14,076 nucleotides of DNA from Candidatus Bathyarchaeia archaeon (GCA_049517415.1 JBEKSC010000042.1:1-14076), one strand, 5' to 3'; counted from the first letter of the stretch, positions 5,020-14,076 are shown. Notes: generated by a model from the letters alone, not told the origin. Program-made: numbers and translations.

Positions 5020-5472
5020 ATGCCTTCGGAGAAGTCATGCGGAGCTGTGATCTTCAAAGCCAACGGGAAACGCAAGTACCTACTGCTTCACTACGAAGGC
5101 GGCCACTGGGATTTCGTAAAGGGACATGTGGAAAGGGATGAAACCGAAATGGAAACCGTTCTCAGAGAAACCAATGAAGAGACCGGCCTGACTGACCTGA
5201 AATTCTTTGAGGGTTACCGTGAGCCAATAAGCTACTACTACAGAAGAGCGGGAAGAATCGTTCACAAGGAAGTCGTCTTCTACCTTCTTGAGGCTAAGAC
5301 GGACTCGGTTCGGCTCTCTAGGGAACATGTCGGTTTTGACTGGATGTCCTATGAGCCAGCCTACGAGCGATTAACGTACAAAAACGCGAAGGATACGTTG
5401 CGCAAGGCCCATGAGTATTTGGAGAAGTTGCAAGCGCAGACTCTAGTCGGGGACGCCGAGAAAAGCGGCTAA
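5020..5472 (+). CDS. Nudix hydrolase, bis(5'-nucleosyl)-tetraphosphatase (asymmetric Ap4A hydrolase)-like
   Basis: Nudix box GHVERDETEMETVLRETNEETGL, plus EKSCGAVIF, YLLLHY..GHWDFVKG, KEVVFYL and LSREH motifs. ATG at 5020 is preferred over TTG at 4972. The 3' end overlaps convergent argF by 30 nt. Confidence 0.9.
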   Translation: MPSEKSCGAVIFKANGKRKYLLLHYEGGHWDFVKGHVERDETEMETVLRETNEETGLTDLKFFEGYREPISYYYRRAGRIVHKEVVFYLLEAKTDSVRLSREHVGFDWMSYEPAYERLTYKNAKDTLRKAHEYLEKLQAQTLVGDAEKSG

Positions 5473-6378
5473 GACCGCCCTTGCCCCATGTAACTTGTTC
5501 TCAGCCTGGTGCCACACGATACTTTTCGGCCCCTCCAAGACTCCATCGGTGATTTCCAGTCCCCTGTGTGCAGGAAGGCAGTGCATTACCGAAACGTCGG
5601 GTTTTGCCTTTTGAACAAGTTTCTCGTTGATCTGGTACGGTTTGAACTTCAGTTCCTTCCTTTTGGCTCCTTTCTCTTGGCCCATACTAACCCACACATC
5701 AGTGTAGAGAACGTCCGCACTTTCAGCGGCCTTCTGCGGGTTCCCCTGGAACTCGACTGCTCCACCAGACTCCTTTGCAAGCTTCCTCGCCCTCTCAAGC
5801 ATGGATTCGTCCGGCTCACAGCCCTTCGGAGTAGAAACGACCATATTCATCCCCATGTTCGCTCCGCCAATCAACCATGAATTGCAAACGTTGTTTCCGT
5901 CTCCGACCCACACAAACTTCAGGCCTGAGAACTTACCCTTAGCCTCAAGGACCGTGAGCAGGTCCGAGATAATTTGAGTCGGATGCTCAAGGTCGCAAAG
6001 AGCGTTGATTATTGGAACGGGTGCATATTCAGCAAACTCCACCAAGGTTTGGTGCGCGTACGTTCGAATAACAAGGCCGCTTAGGTAGGCTCCTAGCACC
6101 CTGGCGGTATCTTTCAGGGGTTCGCCCCGTGTCAACTGCAGCTCGTCAGCGCGAAGATACATGGCCTGGCCGCCCAGCTGATAGGCCGCAGTTTCGAAGC
6201 TAACTCTAGTTCGCGTTGAGGGCTTCTCAAACAGTAGGCCAATGACCTTACCGGACAATGAAGGTTTGAGCGTCCCCTGCTTTGCATCCGATTTGAGTTT
6301 GACCGCAAGCTCCAACAGGGATTGAGTTTCCTCGTGTGTTAGGTCGCCCATGGAAAGAAAGTCTCTACCAGATAACAA
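5443..6378 (-). CDS. argF: Ornithine carbamoyltransferase
   Basis: Carbamoyl-phosphate motif FEKPSTRTRVSF, plus HPTQ, VGDGNNV, the ornithine-binding YTDVWVSMG loop, HCLP and QAENK. Confidence 0.95.
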   Translation of the reverse strand: MLSGRDFLSMGDLTHEETQSLLELAVKLKSDAKQGTLKPSLSGKVIGLLFEKPSTRTRVSFETAAYQLGGQAMYLRADELQLTRGEPLKDTARVLGAYLSGLVIRTYAHQTLVEFAEYAPVPIINALCDLEHPTQIISDLLTVLEAKGKFSGLKFVWVGDGNNVCNSWLIGGANMGMNMVVSTPKGCEPDESMLERARKLAKESGGAVEFQGNPQKAAESADVLYTDVWVSMGQEKGAKRKELKFKPYQINEKLVQKAKPDVSVMHCLPAHRGLEITDGVLEGPKSIVWHQAENKLHGARAVLAAFLGVPD

Positions 6379-6448: not shown

Positions 6449-6859
6449 TTAGGTTCGTTTCTCTGCCCTTACGACGCCACGATATCTAGGGGGAGCTTTC
6501 TTCGTCGGGTCGATCAGGAACCGTCCTGACTTCAGTATGTCCATTCCAATCAGCACGGGGTACCTCATGTCCGAGCGGTCATTAACCGTCACAGGTAGGG
6601 CAAATCTTTCACCAGCAATTTCGACAATCCCCCGCACTAATGGTCGGGTCCGCACTTTGTCTAGAAATGCAGACTTGACCTTGGCAACGTCCACCGTGGG
6701 CCCCAGGCCTATGTTTGCCGCCAGCCATACGTCCACTGAAGTTCTAGTCGCACCTGTGTCGACTTTCCCTTTGACTCGAGCCTCGCCGTGGTGTCCGACG
6801 ACCTTCACATACTCGATTGGGCCGATAACGATCTGCTGTTTCACATTCAATGAAAACAC
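6449..6859 (-). CDS. RimK-associated retropepsin-like aspartic peptidase (RimB / putative ATP-dependent zinc protease family)
   Basis: IG..EYV, KVDTGATRTSVD (catalytic DTG), R.RPLV and DRSDMRYPVLIGMDIL...FLIDP are hallmarks of the RimK-associated protease family. The start could be 6859, 6850 or 6844. Confidence 0.85.
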   Translation of the reverse strand: MFSLNVKQQIVIGPIEYVKVVGHHGEARVKGKVDTGATRTSVDVWLAANIGLGPTVDVAKVKSAFLDKVRTRPLVRGIVEIAGERFALPVTVNDRSDMRYPVLIGMDILKSGRFLIDPTKKAPPRYRGVVRAEKRT

Positions 6860-6924
6860 TGCGGTGGCGAGCGCTTTATGAGCAAACTAAGTATTAAGCT
6901 CACATCGGTAAGTGGCCGAATTTT
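6860..6924. promoter_or_regulatory. Compact divergent promoter shared by the peptidase and rimK-like genes
   Basis: The gap is 65 nt. TATTAA at 6892-6897 lies about 28 nt upstream of ATG 6925 and, read on the minus strand as TTAATA, about 32 nt upstream of GTG 6859. This fits leaderless archaeal transcripts in both directions. Confidence 0.35.
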
Positions 6925-7797
6925 ATGAAAATTGGAGTTCTATCAAAGAACCCGGAATTCTGGGCGACAACGGAAATCATTAGTGCGCTGAAAGAAAGAG
7001 GTGTTCAACCAATCTACGTCAGGACGCCTGAAGTCCACCTTATCTTGGCCGGCCCTAAGGTTGATGCAATTTACGAGAGGCAATCACTATCTCGCCTAGA
7101 CTCGGTGATACCGAGGATTGGGCGCAGCCTCACGCAGCTCGGCGTTATGATTCTGAAACACTTCGAGCTCATGAAACTGCCCTCAACGCTCTCTTTGAAC
7201 GGCCTCTTAACCGCGAGGAACAAGTACCTAGCCCTGCAAGCACTCCATGGGGCTGGAGTAAAGATTCCCGAAAGCGTTCTAATCGCTTCTCGCAACAAGA
7301 ACGATGAACCAACCGAATACCTGTCTCCCCCACTTGTAATGAAACTGCTGAGTGGAACGCAGGGCATCGGGGTGATGCGTGTAAGAGATGCAAAGGAAGC
7401 AGGACCCATAATTGACACCCTCTCCGAACTCGACCAAATGATCTGCCTGCAGAAATTTCTACCCAATCCAGGTGAAGATATTCGAGTCTTTGTTATTGAT
7501 GGAAACATTATTGGGGCCATGAAACGTAAGGCAGCTCCCCACGAGTGGAGAAGCAACATCCACATAGGGGGACAGGGAATCGCACACAAACCCTCCAAAG
7601 CAGAGGCTGAAACTTCCCTCAAGGCAGCGGAAGCAGTTGGTGTCGAAATCGCCGGGGTCGACATAATCTCGGTTGACGAAGTCCCCTATGTCATCGAAGT
7701 GAACGCTTCACCGGGTTTCCAGGGCCTCCTAGGTGCAACCGGAATAAACGCGGCTGAAGAAATTGCGAAGTATGCCATTGCGAAAGGCAAACATTAG
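6925..7797 (+). CDS. rimK: RimK-family ATP-grasp alpha-L-glutamate ligase
   Basis: VIPRIG, ARNK, VMKLLSGTQGIGV, EDIRVFVI, WRSNIHIGG, AGVDII and EVNASPG. The GTQGIGV loop is RimK-type, not the LysX/ArgX GSWG type. Confidence 0.9.
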   Translation: MKIGVLSKNPEFWATTEIISALKERGVQPIYVRTPEVHLILAGPKVDAIYERQSLSRLDSVIPRIGRSLTQLGVMILKHFELMKLPSTLSLNGLLTARNKYLALQALHGAGVKIPESVLIASRNKNDEPTEYLSPPLVMKLLSGTQGIGVMRVRDAKEAGPIIDTLSELDQMICLQKFLPNPGEDIRVFVIDGNIIGAMKRKAAPHEWRSNIHIGGQGIAHKPSKAEAETSLKAAEAVGVEIAGVDIISVDEVPYVIEVNASPGFQGLLGATGINAAEEIAKYAIAKGKH

Positions 7798-7855
7798 AAT
7801 TACGTTAGGCCTAACTCCATAACACTCATTGGAATCATCATCGTACAAGGACTTC

Positions 7856-7929
7856 GCCTGTTGGCAATGAAGACAGTCACAAATACGATGCTCAAATGAC
7901 ATGAACCTGGGGTATCGGAGCTGACAGGC
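7856..7929 (+). ncRNA. Candidate box C/D guide sRNA or structured intergenic RNA
   Basis: C-box variant ATGAAGA (7867-7873) and D box CTGA (7921-7924) span 58 nt. GCCTGTTGGC (7856-7865) can pair with GCTGACAGGC (7920-7929). The internal D'/C' boxes are degenerate. Confidence 0.2.
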
Positions 7930-7974
7930 CTACACGCTCGAATCTGATGAGCTTCTGTTCGACGTGACAAGACG

Positions 7975-8583
7975 TCAGAGCGCCTTGGGCGTTGTGTCGA
8001 TGATTCTGCTTTCGGTCACAATACGGTCCACCCGTTGGTCGTACCGCGACCTTGGAACATTTGAGATGAATTGGAAATCGTAGGCTAAGCCGATGGTCGC
8101 AATGTGGGTTCGCAGCGCGTTTATGCTTCGATCATAGTATCCGGCGCCGTATCCTATTCTGAACCCTCTCTGATCCCACGCGACACCTGGGACTAGGATT
8201 ACGTCGGCTTGCTCCAGGGCTACGGGCCGGCGAAACTCGCTTTTGGGTTCTGGGATTCCATGGGCTCCCCTTTCAAGCTCCTCTGGTGCCTTGAACTCCG
8301 AGAATATCAGGCGCTGGTTGGCCTGGTCAACCACGGGCACTATTAGCCTCTTACCATTCTCGAGTGCCCACCCGACAAGACCACGCGTTCTTACCTCGCT
8401 ACCGATGTCTAAGTAGGTCGAGATTGTTCGAGCTTCCTTTACCTTTGGGAGTTCAAGCAACCTAGCGGTGATCTTGGAGCTCAGTTGGTCCAGTTCTGAA
8501 GCGGGCTTGCTGTTTCTTAATGCAAGCATTTGGGTTCGCAGCATCCGCTTCCTTTCATAGCTTTCCAGGAGTTCCCAACTCAT
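7975..8583 (-). CDS. 5-formyltetrahydrofolate cyclo-ligase (MTHFS/YgfA family)
   Basis: K..LR N-terminal helix, Y....SEV.T, GIPEP, DVILVPGVAWD..GFRIGYGAGYYDR and D..VD.IVTE. The start overlaps the folD stop region by 29 nt. Confidence 0.93.
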   Translation of the reverse strand: MSWELLESYERKRMLRTQMLALRNSKPASELDQLSSKITARLLELPKVKEARTISTYLDIGSEVRTRGLVGWALENGKRLIVPVVDQANQRLIFSEFKAPEELERGAHGIPEPKSEFRRPVALEQADVILVPGVAWDQRGFRIGYGAGYYDRSINALRTHIATIGLAYDFQFISNVPRSRYDQRVDRIVTESRIIDTTPKAL

Positions 8584-9457
8584 CAGGGTTGTACGCCAAT
8601 TTCACACCGCTCTGGGAACACGCCGCGGTCAGCGTGTTGTACATGAGCATTGCAATCGTCATTGGCCCCACTCCACCCGGCACGGGTGTCACAAAGGAAG
8701 CAACAGGAATTACTGCATCAAAATCAACATCCCCCACTAATGCTCCTCCAATGCTACTTGTCCCAATATCGACGACGATAGCCCCTGCTTTGACCATGTT
8801 CGGGCCAACATTGAATTCGGCACGGCGACCAATACCGGTCAAGAGAAGGTCAGCCGTCTTGGAGATTTCCTCAAGCCGTTCAGTCTTTGAGTGGCAGATA
8901 GTCACTGTAGCATCTTCGTTTAGTAGGAGTTGGGCGAGGGGCCTACCCAGCAGCTTACTCCGGTTAATTATGACCGCGTGCTTGCCGGCTATTCTTGCAC
9001 CGTAATGTTTCAGCAAGAGAACGACGCCCATCGGAGTGCAAGGAACGAGCGTCGCCTTCCCTTTCTGATAGAGTAAGCCGAGGTTGCATGGGTTCACCCC
9101 ATCAACGTCTTTCTCTTGGCTTATAGTTGTGCAAACTGCAACATCGTCCAAACCCTTCGGCAAGGGCAATTGGAGTAGGATCCCTGTTACCGAACGATCC
9201 GAATTCAGTTCGGAAACGGCTTTCTCCAACTTTCCCTGGGCTACGTTGGAAGACAACTCAATGCCGCGAGAATTTATTCCAACATCACTGCATGCTAAAT
9301 GCACACTTCGCAAATATGCCTTCGAAGCGGGGCTTTCGCCAACAAGTATTGTTGCTAGTTTGGGTTCCACACTCGAACTCAAAGCTCTAACCTTGTCTCT
9401 AATCTTCGACCTTATCCCTTCAGCTACTATGCGTCCCTCCATCATCTTGGCAGGCAA
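8555..9457 (-). CDS. folD: FolD-family methylenetetrahydrofolate dehydrogenase (cyclohydrolase Lys absent)
   Basis: GILLQLPLP, EKDVDG, PCTPMG, ATVTICHSKT, GDVDF and TPVPGGVGPMTIAML. The true start is probably TTG at 9457 (MPAKMMEGRIVA, 300 aa). The track's extension to 9886 is antisense to FTCD. Confidence 0.93.
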   Translation of the reverse strand: MPAKMMEGRIVAEGIRSKIRDKVRALSSSVEPKLATILVGESPASKAYLRSVHLACSDVGINSRGIELSSNVAQGKLEKAVSELNSDRSVTGILLQLPLPKGLDDVAVCTTISQEKDVDGVNPCNLGLLYQKGKATLVPCTPMGVVLLLKHYGARIAGKHAVIINRSKLLGRPLAQLLLNEDATVTICHSKTERLEEISKTADLLLTGIGRRAEFNVGPNMVKAGAIVVDIGTSSIGGALVGDVDFDAVIPVASFVTPVPGGVGPMTIAMLMYNTLTAACSQSGVKLAYNPDELGTPGKL

Positions 9458-9578
9458 ATTCCTCAGCCCTAAGCGGTTCCGAGTATTGTTGTTCCGCCTT
9501 ATAGAACGATAGAGTCCGTGGAAACTGACCGAAACGAAATTAGCCCCGACAAGTGATTCTCGAGTTCGACGATGAGTT

Positions 9579-11114
9579 TTGAGGCTAGTTGAGTGTGTCC
9601 CGAATTTCAGCGAAGGCAGGAGAAGGGAAGTCATCGACGCGATTGTTGCAGAGGCAAAGGCCCGAAACGTAAAGGTTCTCGATATCGAATCGGACGCGGA
9701 CCACAATCGCTCCGTCCTAACCTTCGTGGGTGAACCTGAAGCGGTTAAGGAAGCGGCCTTGGCCGTCAGCGCCAAGGCGATTGAGCTTATCGACCTGAAC
9801 AAGCACAAGGGCCAACATCCTCGAATGGGTGCGGTCGACGTCATACCCTTCATACCAATCTCCGATGTAACCATGGCAGACTGCATTCAGTTAACGAAGG
9901 ATTTCGCGAAGGAGTATGCATCACGCTTCAAGGTTCCAGTATTCCTCTACGAGGAAGCTGCTACACGGCCCGATCGGCGGAACCTAGCCGAAGTGAGGAA
10001 GGGTGAGTTCGAGGGCCTGAGAGGTGAGATTGGAAAGAACCCGGAAAAGACACCGGACTTCGGTCCCACCGCAATTCACCCAACCGCCGGAGCTACCGCA
10101 ATAGGGGCAAGACGGGTTCTCATAGCCTACAACGTGAACCTCGCAACGAACAACCTCGACGTGGCTAAGAAGATAGCCAAGCAAATTCGAGGAAAAGATG
10201 GGGGCCTAACCGCCGTGAAGGCACTTGGTTTCGAATTGAAGGACCGGGGCATCGTACAAGTTTCCATGAATATGGTTGATTACAAAGCTAGCCAACTCTT
10301 CAAGGCCTTTGAGCTAATTAGAGCCCTAGCGGAGAGCTATGGCGTTCAAGTTCTTGAAAGCGAAGTCGTGGGGCTCGTCCCAATGGAAGCCCTCACTGAC
10401 AGCGCGCAGTTCTATCTCCGATTGCGGGGCTTCAACAACGATCAAATTCTTGAACGCAAGCTAACTGAAACCGGCGGAAACAGGTTAATTGAAAAGAGCC
10501 TTTCGAGTTTTGTGACAGAAGTAGCCTCTGATCAACCGGTTCCGGGCGGTGGAAGTGTATCGGCTTTGGCTGGATCCTTGGCGGCCAGCCTCGTTAGTAT
10601 GGTCTCCCGCCTAACGCTCAAGAAACCCGAGTACGAGAAACATTGGGCGCGTGTCACGGAGGTTCTTACAGAGAGTGAGTTACTCCAGAACGCCCTCCTC
10701 GCCTTGGTCGATGAAGACTCGAGAAGCTTCACGGAATTGCTGCAAGCCTACCGCCTACCCAAGAAGAATGAAGAGGAGAAACGCAAGAGGTCCGATGAAA
10801 TTCAAAAAGGGTTGAAGGCAGCAGCCGAGGTACCGATGAGAACGGCCCAGAAAGCCGCGAAGGCATTGTCCATGGGTAAAACTCTGGCCGAATTCGGCAA
10901 CGAGAATGCGATTTCCGACCTCCAAACCGCAATCCACCTAGCTCACGCGGCCGCGCTAGGCGCAATTTCAAATGTGACCACAAACCTAGCGGCGATAAAG
11001 GATGAAGGTTACAAGAAACAGATGAGCAGTAGGCTTGAAGTCCTCCAGAATGATATTGAAACGGACAAGTCAGCTGCGCTCGCGGTACTGACAAAAAGAA
11101 GTTTGAAAAGTTAA
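9579..11114 (+). CDS. ftcd: Bifunctional glutamate formimidoyltransferase / formiminotetrahydrofolate cyclodeaminase
   Basis: FT domain: LVECVPNFSEGR, DHNRSV, HKGQHPRMGAVDVIPF (catalytic His), IGAR..LIAYNVNL and QVSMN. Cyclodeaminase/FchA-like domain from about 10485: PVPGGGSVSALAG, LVDEDS and GN.NAISD. Confidence 0.95.
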   Translation: MRLVECVPNFSEGRRREVIDAIVAEAKARNVKVLDIESDADHNRSVLTFVGEPEAVKEAALAVSAKAIELIDLNKHKGQHPRMGAVDVIPFIPISDVTMADCIQLTKDFAKEYASRFKVPVFLYEEAATRPDRRNLAEVRKGEFEGLRGEIGKNPEKTPDFGPTAIHPTAGATAIGARRVLIAYNVNLATNNLDVAKKIAKQIRGKDGGLTAVKALGFELKDRGIVQVSMNMVDYKASQLFKAFELIRALAESYGVQVLESEVVGLVPMEALTDSAQFYLRLRGFNNDQILERKLTETGGNRLIEKSLSSFVTEVASDQPVPGGGSVSALAGSLAASLVSMVSRLTLKKPEYEKHWARVTEVLTESELLQNALLALVDEDSRSFTELLQAYRLPKKNEEEKRKRSDEIQKGLKAAAEVPMRTAQKAAKALSMGKTLAEFGNENAISDLQTAIHLAHAAALGAISNVTTNLAAIKDEGYKKQMSSRLEVLQNDIETDKSAALAVLTKRSLKS

Positions 11115-11224: not shown

Positions 11225-11809
11225 TCATTTCTTCCCGCCCGTTTTTTCGTACATTCTTCGGAGCGTCCAGCGTATGGCGTTCTTCAGCTCGAGGAGGCGC
11301 CGGTCGTCACCGTAGTTCTGGATGTGAATCGCCTTCAAGCGACCGTCGTCCTGTTCAACATTGTAAGTGAGAATGGCGTCCGGCGGAATCGTTCCGGCCG
11401 AGGCTGCTTCCTTATCCTTCGTTTGCATAGGCTCAAGAACTTTGGCCAGGAGAAATGAGCGAAGTGGCGGGGAATTGGAATCCAAGTTGATGTTGGGCTC
11501 CGACGTGACGTGAAGGCCGCCTTGCTCAACCTGAATCGACCCTATGCGGACACCGTCAACAGTCAGAACAGGAACACTATCCGCACTTTTGAGAGTCATT
11601 CTGGGTTTTACCGCTTGTTCGGGTTCGCTTGGCGTACTTATCTCAACCGGTCTGAAGCTTCTCTCTGCTAGAAGCGAATCAACAACTTCTATGAAGGAAC
11701 GCAAGTAGGTCACTTCCTCTTCCTGTTGCTTTAAGCGCCGCTCCAAGAACGTCTTCATTTCTGCAAGTTTCTTGGTTAACTGTTGATCAGACGAGGACAA
11801 AACGACCAC
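11225..11809 (-). CDS. Conserved hypothetical protein (N-terminal coiled coil plus alpha/beta domain)
   Basis: 194-aa ORF with a GTG start and TATA-like CTTTAATT about 30 nt upstream. The heptad-rich N-terminus and PP..SF...KVLE.M..KD...I.NY.D..R..E......W...RM.E resemble an uncharacterised Thaumarchaeota/Bathyarchaeia family (recalled, not searched). Confidence 0.8.
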   Translation of the reverse strand: MVVLSSSDQQLTKKLAEMKTFLERRLKQQEEEVTYLRSFIEVVDSLLAERSFRPVEISTPSEPEQAVKPRMTLKSADSVPVLTVDGVRIGSIQVEQGGLHVTSEPNINLDSNSPPLRSFLLAKVLEPMQTKDKEAASAGTIPPDAILTYNVEQDDGRLKAIHIQNYGDDRRLLELKNAIRWTLRRMYEKTGGKK

Positions 11810-11985: not shown

Positions 11986-13845
11986 TTGTCGTCCCCACTC
12001 AGCATGAGCGTCAAGAGACTCGGGCAAATTCTCAAAGATGGGGCCGAAGGCCAAGTCGGAGAAAGTGAAAGTCGACTCCAGACTGCAAGCGATAACTATT
12101 GGCCTCTAATCACAGACTTGCTGATTACAGACTTCAAATTCGACAAATCACATGAAACAGCCCTGAAACTGTTCAAGAAAGACAAGGCCCGGTTCGCGGC
12201 AGTTGACGGCTCAGAAGATCAGAGATTGTTAGGAGGGTTGGCGGTGTTTTGGGCGGGCTCGTACGCCGCAACAGGGTCGATTACGTTCTACAAAGATCAA
12301 CAACCAGACGTGCAATACGATACAGGTTTCGTTGAAAGAGGCCAAGGCCTAGCGAGCTGTGTTCCGATCTATGTGGACTCACTCCCCGAGGTCGACCCGC
12401 AATCAGCATTACACAAGAGCGGTCAACAGTTCACCATATCGGGACCGATGACGGAGCAGTCGACGGTTGACAATTCGACGATAGCAGATTGGATAATGTT
12501 GTTCTCAGAAATTTACCTCGCTCATCAGCTCGCGGCGTCAAAGGAATACGAGATCATTCTTCTTGATAGGTCACTCTCTGGGACTTTGAGCAATTTGATA
12601 TACGATACAGCGAAGCGACCCTTATGGAAACGCCAATGCGCAATCTTTGGTTTTGAAATTGATAATGTCCCAATCGACGAATCAGAGCTAGCATATGGTA
12701 GGTATCACACGCCAAAACTGGACGGCTCCTTACCTCCCCGTGGAGATTACCTGCGCTATTCCACCATCTTTCTGTTGCAGAAACATAACAAAGCACTCAG
12801 CCTTTCTGAGATTGCGAATGAATTGAATTACTCTGCCCAGGATCAGCTTACCCGACTCGGCCGTTTTGTTAAGAAATCAACAGAAGAGGGCTACCTCCAA
12901 GAATCAAACGCGAAGTACAACGCGAACCCCCGCTATTCAAACACTTGGAACCGCCTGCGTAAACTAGTCGAATTGTTCGGTGCCCGCTTCTTCGCGAGCA
13001 GCACAGGAAATCCGCTCCGTCTCTCAGATGCTCCCGAACCTCGGTGGATAACAACACTCGACCTTGCTTTCCTTTGCCTCTTCGCTTTCAACCTTCTAAT
13101 AGAAGAATCACAAGAAAACCACATTCTCCTAGTAGGCATCACAAAGGACACAACCGCAAGGGATCTTATCAGCCATCTCATACCCGTATCACTCAAAGAA
13201 GGAGTTTGGAAGCAAAAGGTCCAACACGTCGCGACAACCGACAGAATGTTATTGCAGGCGATCAGCATGTTTCATCACAGCGACTTACCCATACCTTGGG
13301 CTACGCTTGAGTACGACACCGCCTTTCAGACAATAGTCCCCGACTTTCAGCACAGAGAGGGCTATGTATCGGGAGCAATTAGCAATCGTATCATTCTTGA
13401 ACAACGTTTCGTAAAATCCTACATTCAACTTGACAAAGCCAAATCTGACGACCAGTTCAGAAGCAACGTATTGTTTATCGACCGTTTATATCATGACCTC
13501 GAGAAGGCGCCCACGCTAAAGCTCAAACACGATTACGCAAGCACAATAGAGGAAATGCAGCCAGTCCTCTGGGATTCGAAACTGTTGACGAATCGTGTCC
13601 AGGAACTCACTATGGTAACTCTGAAGGCTATGACGCAGCAGAGCCTTCCGGAGGTTTTCGGACACAATAAACCGCTCTACATTGCTGACAAGATCGTCAA
13701 GGCTCAAAGGGACCGCGCAGCAGAAATAGTCAAAGCTACTGGCCACTGGCTAGTAACACATCCAAAGCTGAGGAAGTTCTCATTCTACATGAACACTTTC
13801 CGGGCAAGAAGGAGCGAAGTTGAGAATGCAAGAAGTAGATCTTAG
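11986..13845 (+). CDS. nurA: NurA-family nuclease, long variant with winged-helix-like insertion
   Basis: NurA-like motifs in the right order: FAAVDGS (D74), helix Glu (E175), ILLDRSL (D194), LVGITKDT (K387), GHNKPLYIADKIVK (D568), then a basic C-terminal tail. Alternative start ATG at 12004. Confidence 0.75.
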   Translation: MSSPLSMSVKRLGQILKDGAEGQVGESESRLQTASDNYWPLITDLLITDFKFDKSHETALKLFKKDKARFAAVDGSEDQRLLGGLAVFWAGSYAATGSITFYKDQQPDVQYDTGFVERGQGLASCVPIYVDSLPEVDPQSALHKSGQQFTISGPMTEQSTVDNSTIADWIMLFSEIYLAHQLAASKEYEIILLDRSLSGTLSNLIYDTAKRPLWKRQCAIFGFEIDNVPIDESELAYGRYHTPKLDGSLPPRGDYLRYSTIFLLQKHNKALSLSEIANELNYSAQDQLTRLGRFVKKSTEEGYLQESNAKYNANPRYSNTWNRLRKLVELFGARFFASSTGNPLRLSDAPEPRWITTLDLAFLCLFAFNLLIEESQENHILLVGITKDTTARDLISHLIPVSLKEGVWKQKVQHVATTDRMLLQAISMFHHSDLPIPWATLEYDTAFQTIVPDFQHREGYVSGAISNRIILEQRFVKSYIQLDKAKSDDQFRSNVLFIDRLYHDLEKAPTLKLKHDYASTIEEMQPVLWDSKLLTNRVQELTMVTLKAMTQQSLPEVFGHNKPLYIADKIVKAQRDRAAEIVKATGHWLVTHPKLRKFSFYMNTFRARRSEVENARSRS

Positions 13846-14065
13846 CCGCCACTTCACCGACCTGAACAACCGGTTCGACGCGAGGCTATCGGCCGTCCTG
13901 GCAATAAGACGGGCTGAAGTCTCGGCTGAGACTACAGGTTTCTCAGCGAAGTACGAATGCCGTGTGAAGGCACAGTATCAGAGAGACTTGATGGGCCTTC
14001 TCGAGGAGGGCATGCTATTAGCGGTGCGCAATTTCAAAGCGAAGAAGCATAACGGCAACCGCTAA
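13826..14065 (+). CDS. N-terminal fragment of a probable HerA-type ATPase partner of NurA (apparent stop likely artefactual)
   Basis: ATG at 13826 (TTG at 13820) overlaps the nurA end. The beta-rich segment ending LLEEGMLLAVRNF is compatible with a HAS-barrel N-terminus. The identity is inferred mainly from position; no Walker motifs are in view. Confidence 0.5.
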   Translation: MQEVDLSRHFTDLNNRFDARLSAVLAIRRAEVSAETTGFSAKYECRVKAQYQRDLMGLLEEGMLLAVRNFKAKKHNGNR

Positions 14066-14076
14066 TAGCATGCCCT
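14007..14076. repeat. Perfect 19-bp inverted repeat ending at the last base (probable fold-back artefact)
   Basis: AGGGCATGCTATTAGCGGT (14007-14025) is the exact reverse complement of ACCGCTAATAGCATGCCCT (14058-14076). Confidence 0.9.

Follow-up and report, generated by a model that had tools for sequence, protein, structure and literature searches.

A candidate RimB/RimK-type glutamate ligase and retropepsin pair next to folate genes in a bS6-less archaeon

On contig C42 of genome G000, from a Candidatus Bathyarchaeia archaeon (GCA_049517415.1, JBEKSC010000042.1:1-14076), a retropepsin gene and a gene for a RimK-type ligase stand head-to-head, and three folate one-carbon (C1) genes follow them. 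This whole stretch of 14,076 nucleotides, here called the window, raises the question of what such a pair would glutamylate and trim in an archaeon. A first-pass annotation of the sequence had proposed folate as the target. Comparison of the proteins and their loci led us to a different answer: the pair is probably a lineage-restricted archaeal writer/eraser of the RimB/RimK type, which would build and cut poly-alpha-L-glutamate on peptide acceptors, the host having no ribosomal protein bS6. The absence of bS6, also expected in the first-pass annotation, held up: bS6/RpsF (PF01250) was not found in G000 (2.65 Mb, 100% complete, 6.9% contaminated) by a search that was positive in 10 of 14 controls.

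The ligase and its retropepsin partner

The ligase gene (6925-7797, plus strand, 290 aa) encodes a RimK-type ATP-grasp alpha-L-glutamate ligase with PF18030 (RimK_N) and PF08443, and it passed the family model TIGR00768 (187.5 bits, cut-off 143.4). Its best matches in the PDB were Pseudomonas RimK (178 and 170 bits) and E. coli RimK (138 bits), with LysX/ArgX at 69 bits or less; homologues at 80-85% identity belonged to named Candidatus Bathyarchaeia. Scores stayed below the cut-offs of the models for MptN (NF040720, 159 vs 350), CofF (TIGR04443, 68.8 vs 300) and LysX/ArgX (TIGR02144, 108.7 vs 275.6). The ligase tree comprised 44 rows: the window, 10 of the 19 genus orthologues, three paired ligases of other lineages, 16 MptN-like, three LysX-like and five bacterial RimK sequences, and six fusion domains. 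The term MptN-like denotes genes, most of them within fwd/ftr/mch/mtd/cdh clusters, of which the five scanned had MptN model scores of 204-280. The paired Bathyarchaeia ligases formed one clade (support 97/94), whose sister was bacterial RimK together with one protease-RimK fusion (99/96), and the MptN-like and LysX-like rows fell apart from both. A forced clade of paired and MptN-like rows was moderately rejected (p-AU 0.026), so that the relation to MptN raised in the first-pass annotation was not borne out in this tree, which holds no characterised MptN or CofF reference.

All catalytic residues of E. coli RimK (K100, K141, D187, R189, R203, R211, D248, E260 and N262) are kept in the window ligase, as K100, K140, D185, R187, R201, R209, D246, E258 and N260; the position of E. 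coli E178 is occupied by K. Seven residues contact poly-alpha-Glu in the Pseudomonas RimK structure (PMC10092738). Five of these are identical in the window ligase, R8 is conservatively replaced by K, and S14 by A; the MptN-like rows deviate at contact positions 7, 68, 211 and 215. As far as its sequence allows it to be placed, the ligase is a RimK-clade enzyme with an intact catalytic site and most of the poly-Glu contacts, outside the sampled MptN-like and LysX-like groups.

The retropepsin gene (6449-6859, minus strand, 136 aa; PF05618, PF13975, PF13650), with a true start possibly a few codons inside the called frame, encodes a RimB-like clan AA aspartic peptidase of a short archaeal subfamily. 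Its DTG catalytic motif, D34-T35-G36, maps to 6752-6760 on the minus strand, where the codon position was confirmed, and D34 and G36 were invariant across 60 aligned relatives. The DTG and a DRSxM-type motif are common to this protein and bacterial RimB-like proteins. The AlphaFold model (pLDDT 92) had RloA, RloA2 and Lpg0085/DUF785 as its top Foldseek matches, which suggests an RloA-type fold. A predicted complex of RimK with the protease dimer scored 0.04 (mark 0.32) and weighs neither way. Together, the RimK-clade tree, the kept catalytic and contact residues and the predicted RloA fold supported the first-pass annotation where it took RimK and the RimB-like peptidase for a candidate writer/eraser pair.

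The scan for fusions covered 30 protease representatives, picked mostly for length from the 150 returned. Eleven of the 30 are fusions with RimK; in 10 of these the ligase comes first and in one the protease, and one fusion matched haloarchaeal plasmid proteins at 45-60% identity. The named free-standing relatives of the protease came from Aenigmarchaeota and Nanoarchaeota. Judging from these fusions and named relatives, the RimK ligase is the constant partner of this retropepsin subfamily. The protease tree was poorly resolved at depth, and no donor was named from it.

Conservation, promoter and acceptor of the pair

The two genes lie head-to-head in all 20 genus loci, window included, with 53-86 bp between matches (65 bp in the window). 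Two back-to-back TATA-like boxes (6875-6898, no strand assigned; TTTATGA at 6875-6881 and GTATTAAG at 6891-6898) are conserved columns in the alignment of the 20 genus intergenic regions, and the second box ends 27 bp ahead of the rimK ATG. They form a putative shared divergent promoter, from which the pair is apparently driven. Sigma-70 and terminator scans stayed at chance level; such scans are ill-suited to archaea. Of the 22 other genus genomes, 19 have a rimK orthologue at 70% identity or more, compared with none of the 18 genomes from outside the genus in the same sample. Strong protease matches (E<1e-15) occurred in 14 of 301 class genomes, namely 11 of this genus plus G310, G181 and G255. 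Weak matches were seen in 11 further class genomes; neither of the two that were opened (G065, G100) has an adjoining rimK. No match at E<=1e-12 appeared in 400 other genomes of the phylum.

Outside the genus the two genes share a strand and their order varies: the protease precedes the ligase in G255 and G181, and the ligase precedes the protease in G310. A genome-wide scan with the G255 ligase matched G255 and G181 only. The spread of the pair is thus patchy and lineage-restricted, and the pairing itself, with 20 of 20 genus loci and fusions elsewhere, is far beyond chance. A NUDIX gene ahead of the pair in G255 and G181 was considered as a conserved partner and dropped, as it aligns with the window NUDIX over just 31 residues.

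By analogy with the bacterial enzymes, the ligase would use ATP to activate a C-terminal glutamate at its alpha-carboxyl and add L-Glu repeatedly, and the protease dimer, with its two D34 residues, would cut within stretches of some five glutamates or more. The protease may also tune the ligase, and both genes would be co-regulated from the putative divergent promoter. RimB requires 5-6 contiguous Glu and boosts free poly-alpha-Glu synthesis by RimK (PMC11957791). Because of this requirement, a polymer product fits the pair and a one-residue cofactor cap does not. The presence of an intact, conserved pair in a bS6-less archaeon implies either a second protein target or turnover of free poly-alpha-glutamate as a function in its own right. 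A free poly-alpha-Glu chain, serving as a reversible glutamate store or a polyanion, is our tentative first candidate for the acceptor; the C-terminus of some host protein is slightly less probable. These were also the fallback targets of the first-pass annotation, and both fit the data better than folate does.

The fusions offer a hint about the acceptor. Twelve of the 13 RimK-protease fusions examined carry a Glu-Glu C-terminus; the set consisted of P0136, P0172, P0192, P0262, P0142, P0177, P0190, P0248, P0135, P0169, L169:3998-5320, L170:3992-5308 and L171:4001-5308, haloarchaeal where named. These ends resemble the acceptor end of bS6 and point, by sequence likeness, to peptide acceptors in the fusion branch, where the enzyme may use its own C-terminus as a primer or tagging site.

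Several observations weigh against the RimB/RimK-type reading. The EE-ending fusions sit in another ligase clade, and neither the ligase nor the retropepsin of the window ends in Glu. Frames ending in EE were not enriched in G000 (9 of 3160 called, about 10 expected), no run of five or more Glu was present, and none of the eight tail candidates scanned (seven of the nine EE-ending frames plus one acidic tail) was ribosomal. These eight were an aldehyde dehydrogenase, two CBS proteins, a response regulator, a coiled-coil protein, a cupin-like protein and two proteins without a family. The ligase fell below the cut-off of the bS6-ligase model PRK10446 (153 vs 331); its identity to bacterial RimK was just 32-38%, and the ligase tree separates it from MptN-like rows rather than from characterised MptN or CofF. 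The retropepsin reached 30.5 bits on the RimB model NF052261 (cut-off 200) and is without the insert of about 20 residues found in bacterial RimB-like proteins, and with so low a score and that insert missing, the specificity assigned to it is borrowed from bacteria. As a separate observation, two CBS-domain proteins (G000:C14:21547-22122 and C4:11513-12103) have cysteine-rich tails ending in EEE and EE, and they are possible, unsupported acceptors.

The folate neighbourhood and other candidate substrates

All five genes, retropepsin, RimK, 5-FCL, folD and ftcd, were present, each matched by family profile searches. Beyond rimK lie 5-formyl-tetrahydrofolate cyclo-ligase (5-FCL; 7975-8583, minus strand; TIGR02727, 172.5 bits, cut-off 84.9), FolD (8555-9445, minus strand, 296 aa; PF00763 and PF02882) and a bifunctional FTCD with its cyclodeaminase domain (9579-11114, plus strand; TIGR02024, 420, cut-off 221). 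A 443-aa folD frame reaching 9886 was rejected as over-long, since it overlaps ftcd and the Pfam domain begins at residue 2 of the 296-aa form. On the other side, argF for ornithine carbamoyltransferase (5443-6378, minus strand; TIGR00658, 427 bits) is on the strand of the retropepsin, about 70 bp downstream of it, and was used as a linkage control. The first-pass description of the pair as directly followed by 5-FCL, folD and ftcd was right as to the genes, their position and the head-to-head pair; it did not extend to a common transcript. The rimK and 5-FCL genes are convergent (their stops are at 7797 and 7975, respectively) and the folD and ftcd genes divergent, which keeps rimK off any transcript that carries a folate gene.

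Linkage on the folate side was scored in the 16 of 20 genus loci with at least 6 kb there. folD lay at most 2.2 kb away in eight, 2.9-8.5 kb in three and about 10-12 kb in three; one locus had ftcd only, and one had nothing within 8 kb. In G012, folD is about 0.3 kb past rimK on an adjoining contig. Altogether, folD was in the same block as the pair, 0.3-12 kb away, in 15 of 20 genus loci, but within 1.5 kb in just five. By comparison, all 20 loci have NUDIX within 1.1 kb of the pair, 19 have DNA ligase within 4.8 kb and 17 have argF within 131 bp. 5-FCL was found in 8 of 23 genus genomes and FTCD in 19 of 23; G004 has no more than a remnant of 5-FCL. The gap after rimK, at 7798-7974 in the window and matching positions in L034-L051, is insertion-prone, ranging from 0.2 to 12 kb, with inserts that include an LLM oxidoreductase, GNAT, PPK2, a DDAH-like gene, glycosyltransferases and an integrase.

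No folate genes stood beside the pair in the fetched DNA of G255, G181 and G310 (the upstream side of G310 ends at the contig end), nor beside the pair or fusion in eight metagenome loci, three haloarchaeal and five bacterial records. Sister genera have folD, and mostly 5-FCL, inside the pur operon without the pair (L122-L128, L131, L133, L139-L141). A neighbourhood comparison of the kind that the first-pass annotation had called for returned a linkage that varies within the genus and was not seen in two other Bathyarchaeia lineages. The folate genes look like neighbours of the pair in a genus-wide syntenic block, set off from rimK by the insertion-prone gap. An apparent joint loss of pair and folD in G009, G020 and G007 mostly dissolved, as a piece of the protease remains where a G020 contig ends and the G007 contig stops in argF; in G009 there is no pair and FTCD is kept. 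Two smaller observations belong here. The pur operons of the sister genera hold bacterial-type purN and purH, and FolC was not found. One of the haloarchaeal fusions of RimK and protease is 2.5 kb away from hutU (L169:1-1520); after the ftcd of the window, this is the second case, perhaps by chance, of proximity to the breakdown of histidine, a pathway that yields glutamate.

Neither G000 nor any of 43 other family genomes yielded a FolC, as the first-pass annotation had guessed. FolP and Fhs were likewise not found in G000, where urocanase is present. With FolP and Fhs missing and urocanase kept, the simplest role for ftcd, folD and 5-FCL would be to process histidine-derived C1 units on scavenged folate, with FTCD most simply catalysing the final step of histidine breakdown. 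A full-length C26 hydrolase was not found in G000, which gave partial matches only. Three CofE-family genes are encoded in G000 (C8:28423-29166, C10:44672-45757 and C15:12808-13572; L075-L077), and the family occurs in 59 of 59 family genomes, mostly in three copies. The C15 copy was the top G000 scorer on the folate gamma-glutamate ligase model TIGR04132, at 132.8 against a cut-off of 350. Its matches at E<=1e-62 occurred in 32 genomes, none with FolC and 17 with FolD, a count in which many matches are at threshold and kinship confounds. A CofE homologue takes the place of FolC in Chlamydia (PMC1971073). The CofE-family paralogues are ready candidates for filling the FolC gap seen in 44 genomes of this folate-enzyme-using family.

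These data bear directly on folate as the substrate. The ligase would then add alpha-linked Glu tails to tetrahydrofolate (THF), or extend gamma-linked tails, and the retropepsin would trim them, in place of FolC and gamma-glutamyl hydrolase or alongside these; put on scavenged folates, such tails could serve as an alpha-tail retention system in a FolC-less archaeon. The glutamate of folate carries a free alpha-carboxyl, and the missing FolC and C26 hydrolase would leave such a system a place. Alpha-linked distal glutamates are reported for E. coli folate tails (PMC1971073, citing Ferone 1986), and if this reading is true, RimK-type enzymes become candidates for that activity. Two counts speak for folate and against the RimB/RimK-type reading: folD shares the block in the 15 loci above, and FolD is present in 13 of 14 pair carriers compared with 116 of 287 other genomes, although 11 of the 14 carriers are one genus and as kin not independent. 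Against folate, rimK is convergent with 5-FCL, and NUDIX, argF and DNA ligase are tied to the pair more closely than folD is. Pair and FolC are not complementary, either: among FolD-positive, FolC-negative class genomes, 61 of 72 are without the pair (57 without even a weak protease match; 11 of 72 have it), and G181 and G255 carry the pair plus two FolC each. The sister genera keep folD and 5-FCL, and G009 keeps FTCD, without the pair, and a substitute for FolC is available in the CofE family. No publication tying RimK to folate was found in a search that left most subscription papers outside. The folate target and the replacement of FolC, the core of the first-pass annotation, are weakened to the point of being improbable.

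Two further kinds of small acceptor can be weighed by the same evidence. Capping of coenzyme F420 or methanopterin with one alpha-Glu by a CofF-like or MptN-like ligase would suit a host in which F420 is a plausible metabolite: G000 has CofD, CofE and 15 F420/LLM-type oxidoreductase matches, an F420-type LLM gene adjoins rimK in one genome (G004), and the MptN model scored slightly over the bS6-ligase model (159 vs 153 bits). MptN adds a single residue. CofF, too, adds one terminal Glu (PMC8498797), and for this reason CofF-like capping leaves an endopeptidase nothing to cut. The ligase is far under the CofF and MptN cut-offs, Fwd, Ftr, Mch, Mtd and Cdh were not found in G000 by tblastn with relatives' proteins as queries, and CofE is family-wide whereas the pair is not. 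The relatives' MptN-like genes, moreover, lie in the tetrahydromethanopterin (H4MPT) cluster and make up a clade of their own, and G001 has an MptN-like gene as well as the pair. We consider this the least probable of the readings. Synthesis of a small acyl-glutamate metabolite, as in the making of NAAG by animal RimK homologues, or a part in arginine metabolism with argF, the protease having a separate role, is scarcely more probable. It draws on argF as the next gene after the protease at 17 of the 20 loci and on Rimkla, named NAAG synthetase II (PMC10550729). The LysX/ArgX score is low, however, LysZ and LysY were not found in G000, and other members of the genus have LysX/ArgX genes in addition; several loci have lost argF or retain only part of it and still have the pair, and argF is not beside the pair in G255, G181 or G310. 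Constant pairing and fusion with an endopeptidase would also be left unexplained.

Relation to known systems and remaining features of the window

The RimB/RimK-type reading has its closest counterpart in Pseudomonas RimB-RimK (rimABK) and the bacterial RimBK hybrids (PMC11957791, PMC10092738). The likeness lies in a RimK-clade ligase with a PreATP-grasp domain and with the catalytic and most poly-Glu residues, a retropepsin partner with DTG and the DUF785/RloA fold, and a patchy, accessory distribution. The window pair differs in being archaeal, in its bS6-less host, in its divergent genes instead of one operon and in having no RimA beside the pair in the window; its protease is about 20 residues shorter than bacterial RimB-like proteins and 21-30% identical to them. 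The chemistry of the pair is already known, and the archaeal, bS6-less setting and the divergent layout would make it a variant of RimB/RimK. The haloarchaeal fusions, on plasmid records of Halolamina, Haladaptatus and Natrononativus, have a RimK-family ligase and the same short protease subfamily (37-45% identity); they differ in being fused ligase-first, in their ligase clade, in the C-terminal Glu-Glu and in often standing beside an AstE/AspA-family gene. To our knowledge their hosts belong to a domain without bS6. The literature searched held no characterisation of these fusions.

The archaeal enzymes MptN and CofF likewise belong to the TIGR00768 family of ATP-grasp alpha-L-glutamate ligases; the window ligase is set apart from them by its scores, its clade and a host in which the H4MPT pathway was not found. 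No window-type protease occurred in the 16 MptN-like loci fetched. The MptN-like ligases of other Bathyarchaeia (L052-L068) are encoded in fwd/ftr/mch/mtd/cdh clusters, together with a gene resembling CitG, a divergent CofE-like gene and a family of about 350 aa that has no annotation (c27). FolC2 (Chlamydia CT611, CofE/COG1478 family) is the known case of FolC-free folate glutamylation, and the three CofE-family genes of G000 resemble it in family; they lie outside the window, are unrelated to RimK and would make gamma-linkages.

No literature on an archaeal RimB-RimK pair was found, within the same limits of the search. A comparative study of 2009 reportedly treats ATP-grasp ligases beside aspartyl peptidases. 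The excerpts of PMC4431377 and PMC10861534 had no bearing on an archaeal pair. RimB/RimK figures in the literature as a bacterial system that modifies the ribosome. The RimB paper (PMC11957791) surveyed bacterial accessions only and never mentions archaea. Both proteins of the window are small, soluble-looking and easy to assay, which makes the question of their acceptor directly testable.

The rest of the window holds features apart from the pair. A conserved 194-aa protein (11225-11809, minus strand) without a Pfam or NCBIfam match separates ftcd from nurA at 11 of the 20 genus loci. The NurA-like protein that follows is unusually long (619 aa, weak PF09376) and precedes the start of herA (together 11986-14076); the remainder of herA and asnS sit on contig C21, so that the contig break splits herA. 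Beyond the argF of the window, the top matches in G000 included four more carbamoyltransferase paralogues (C1:30913-36264 and 161183-163466).

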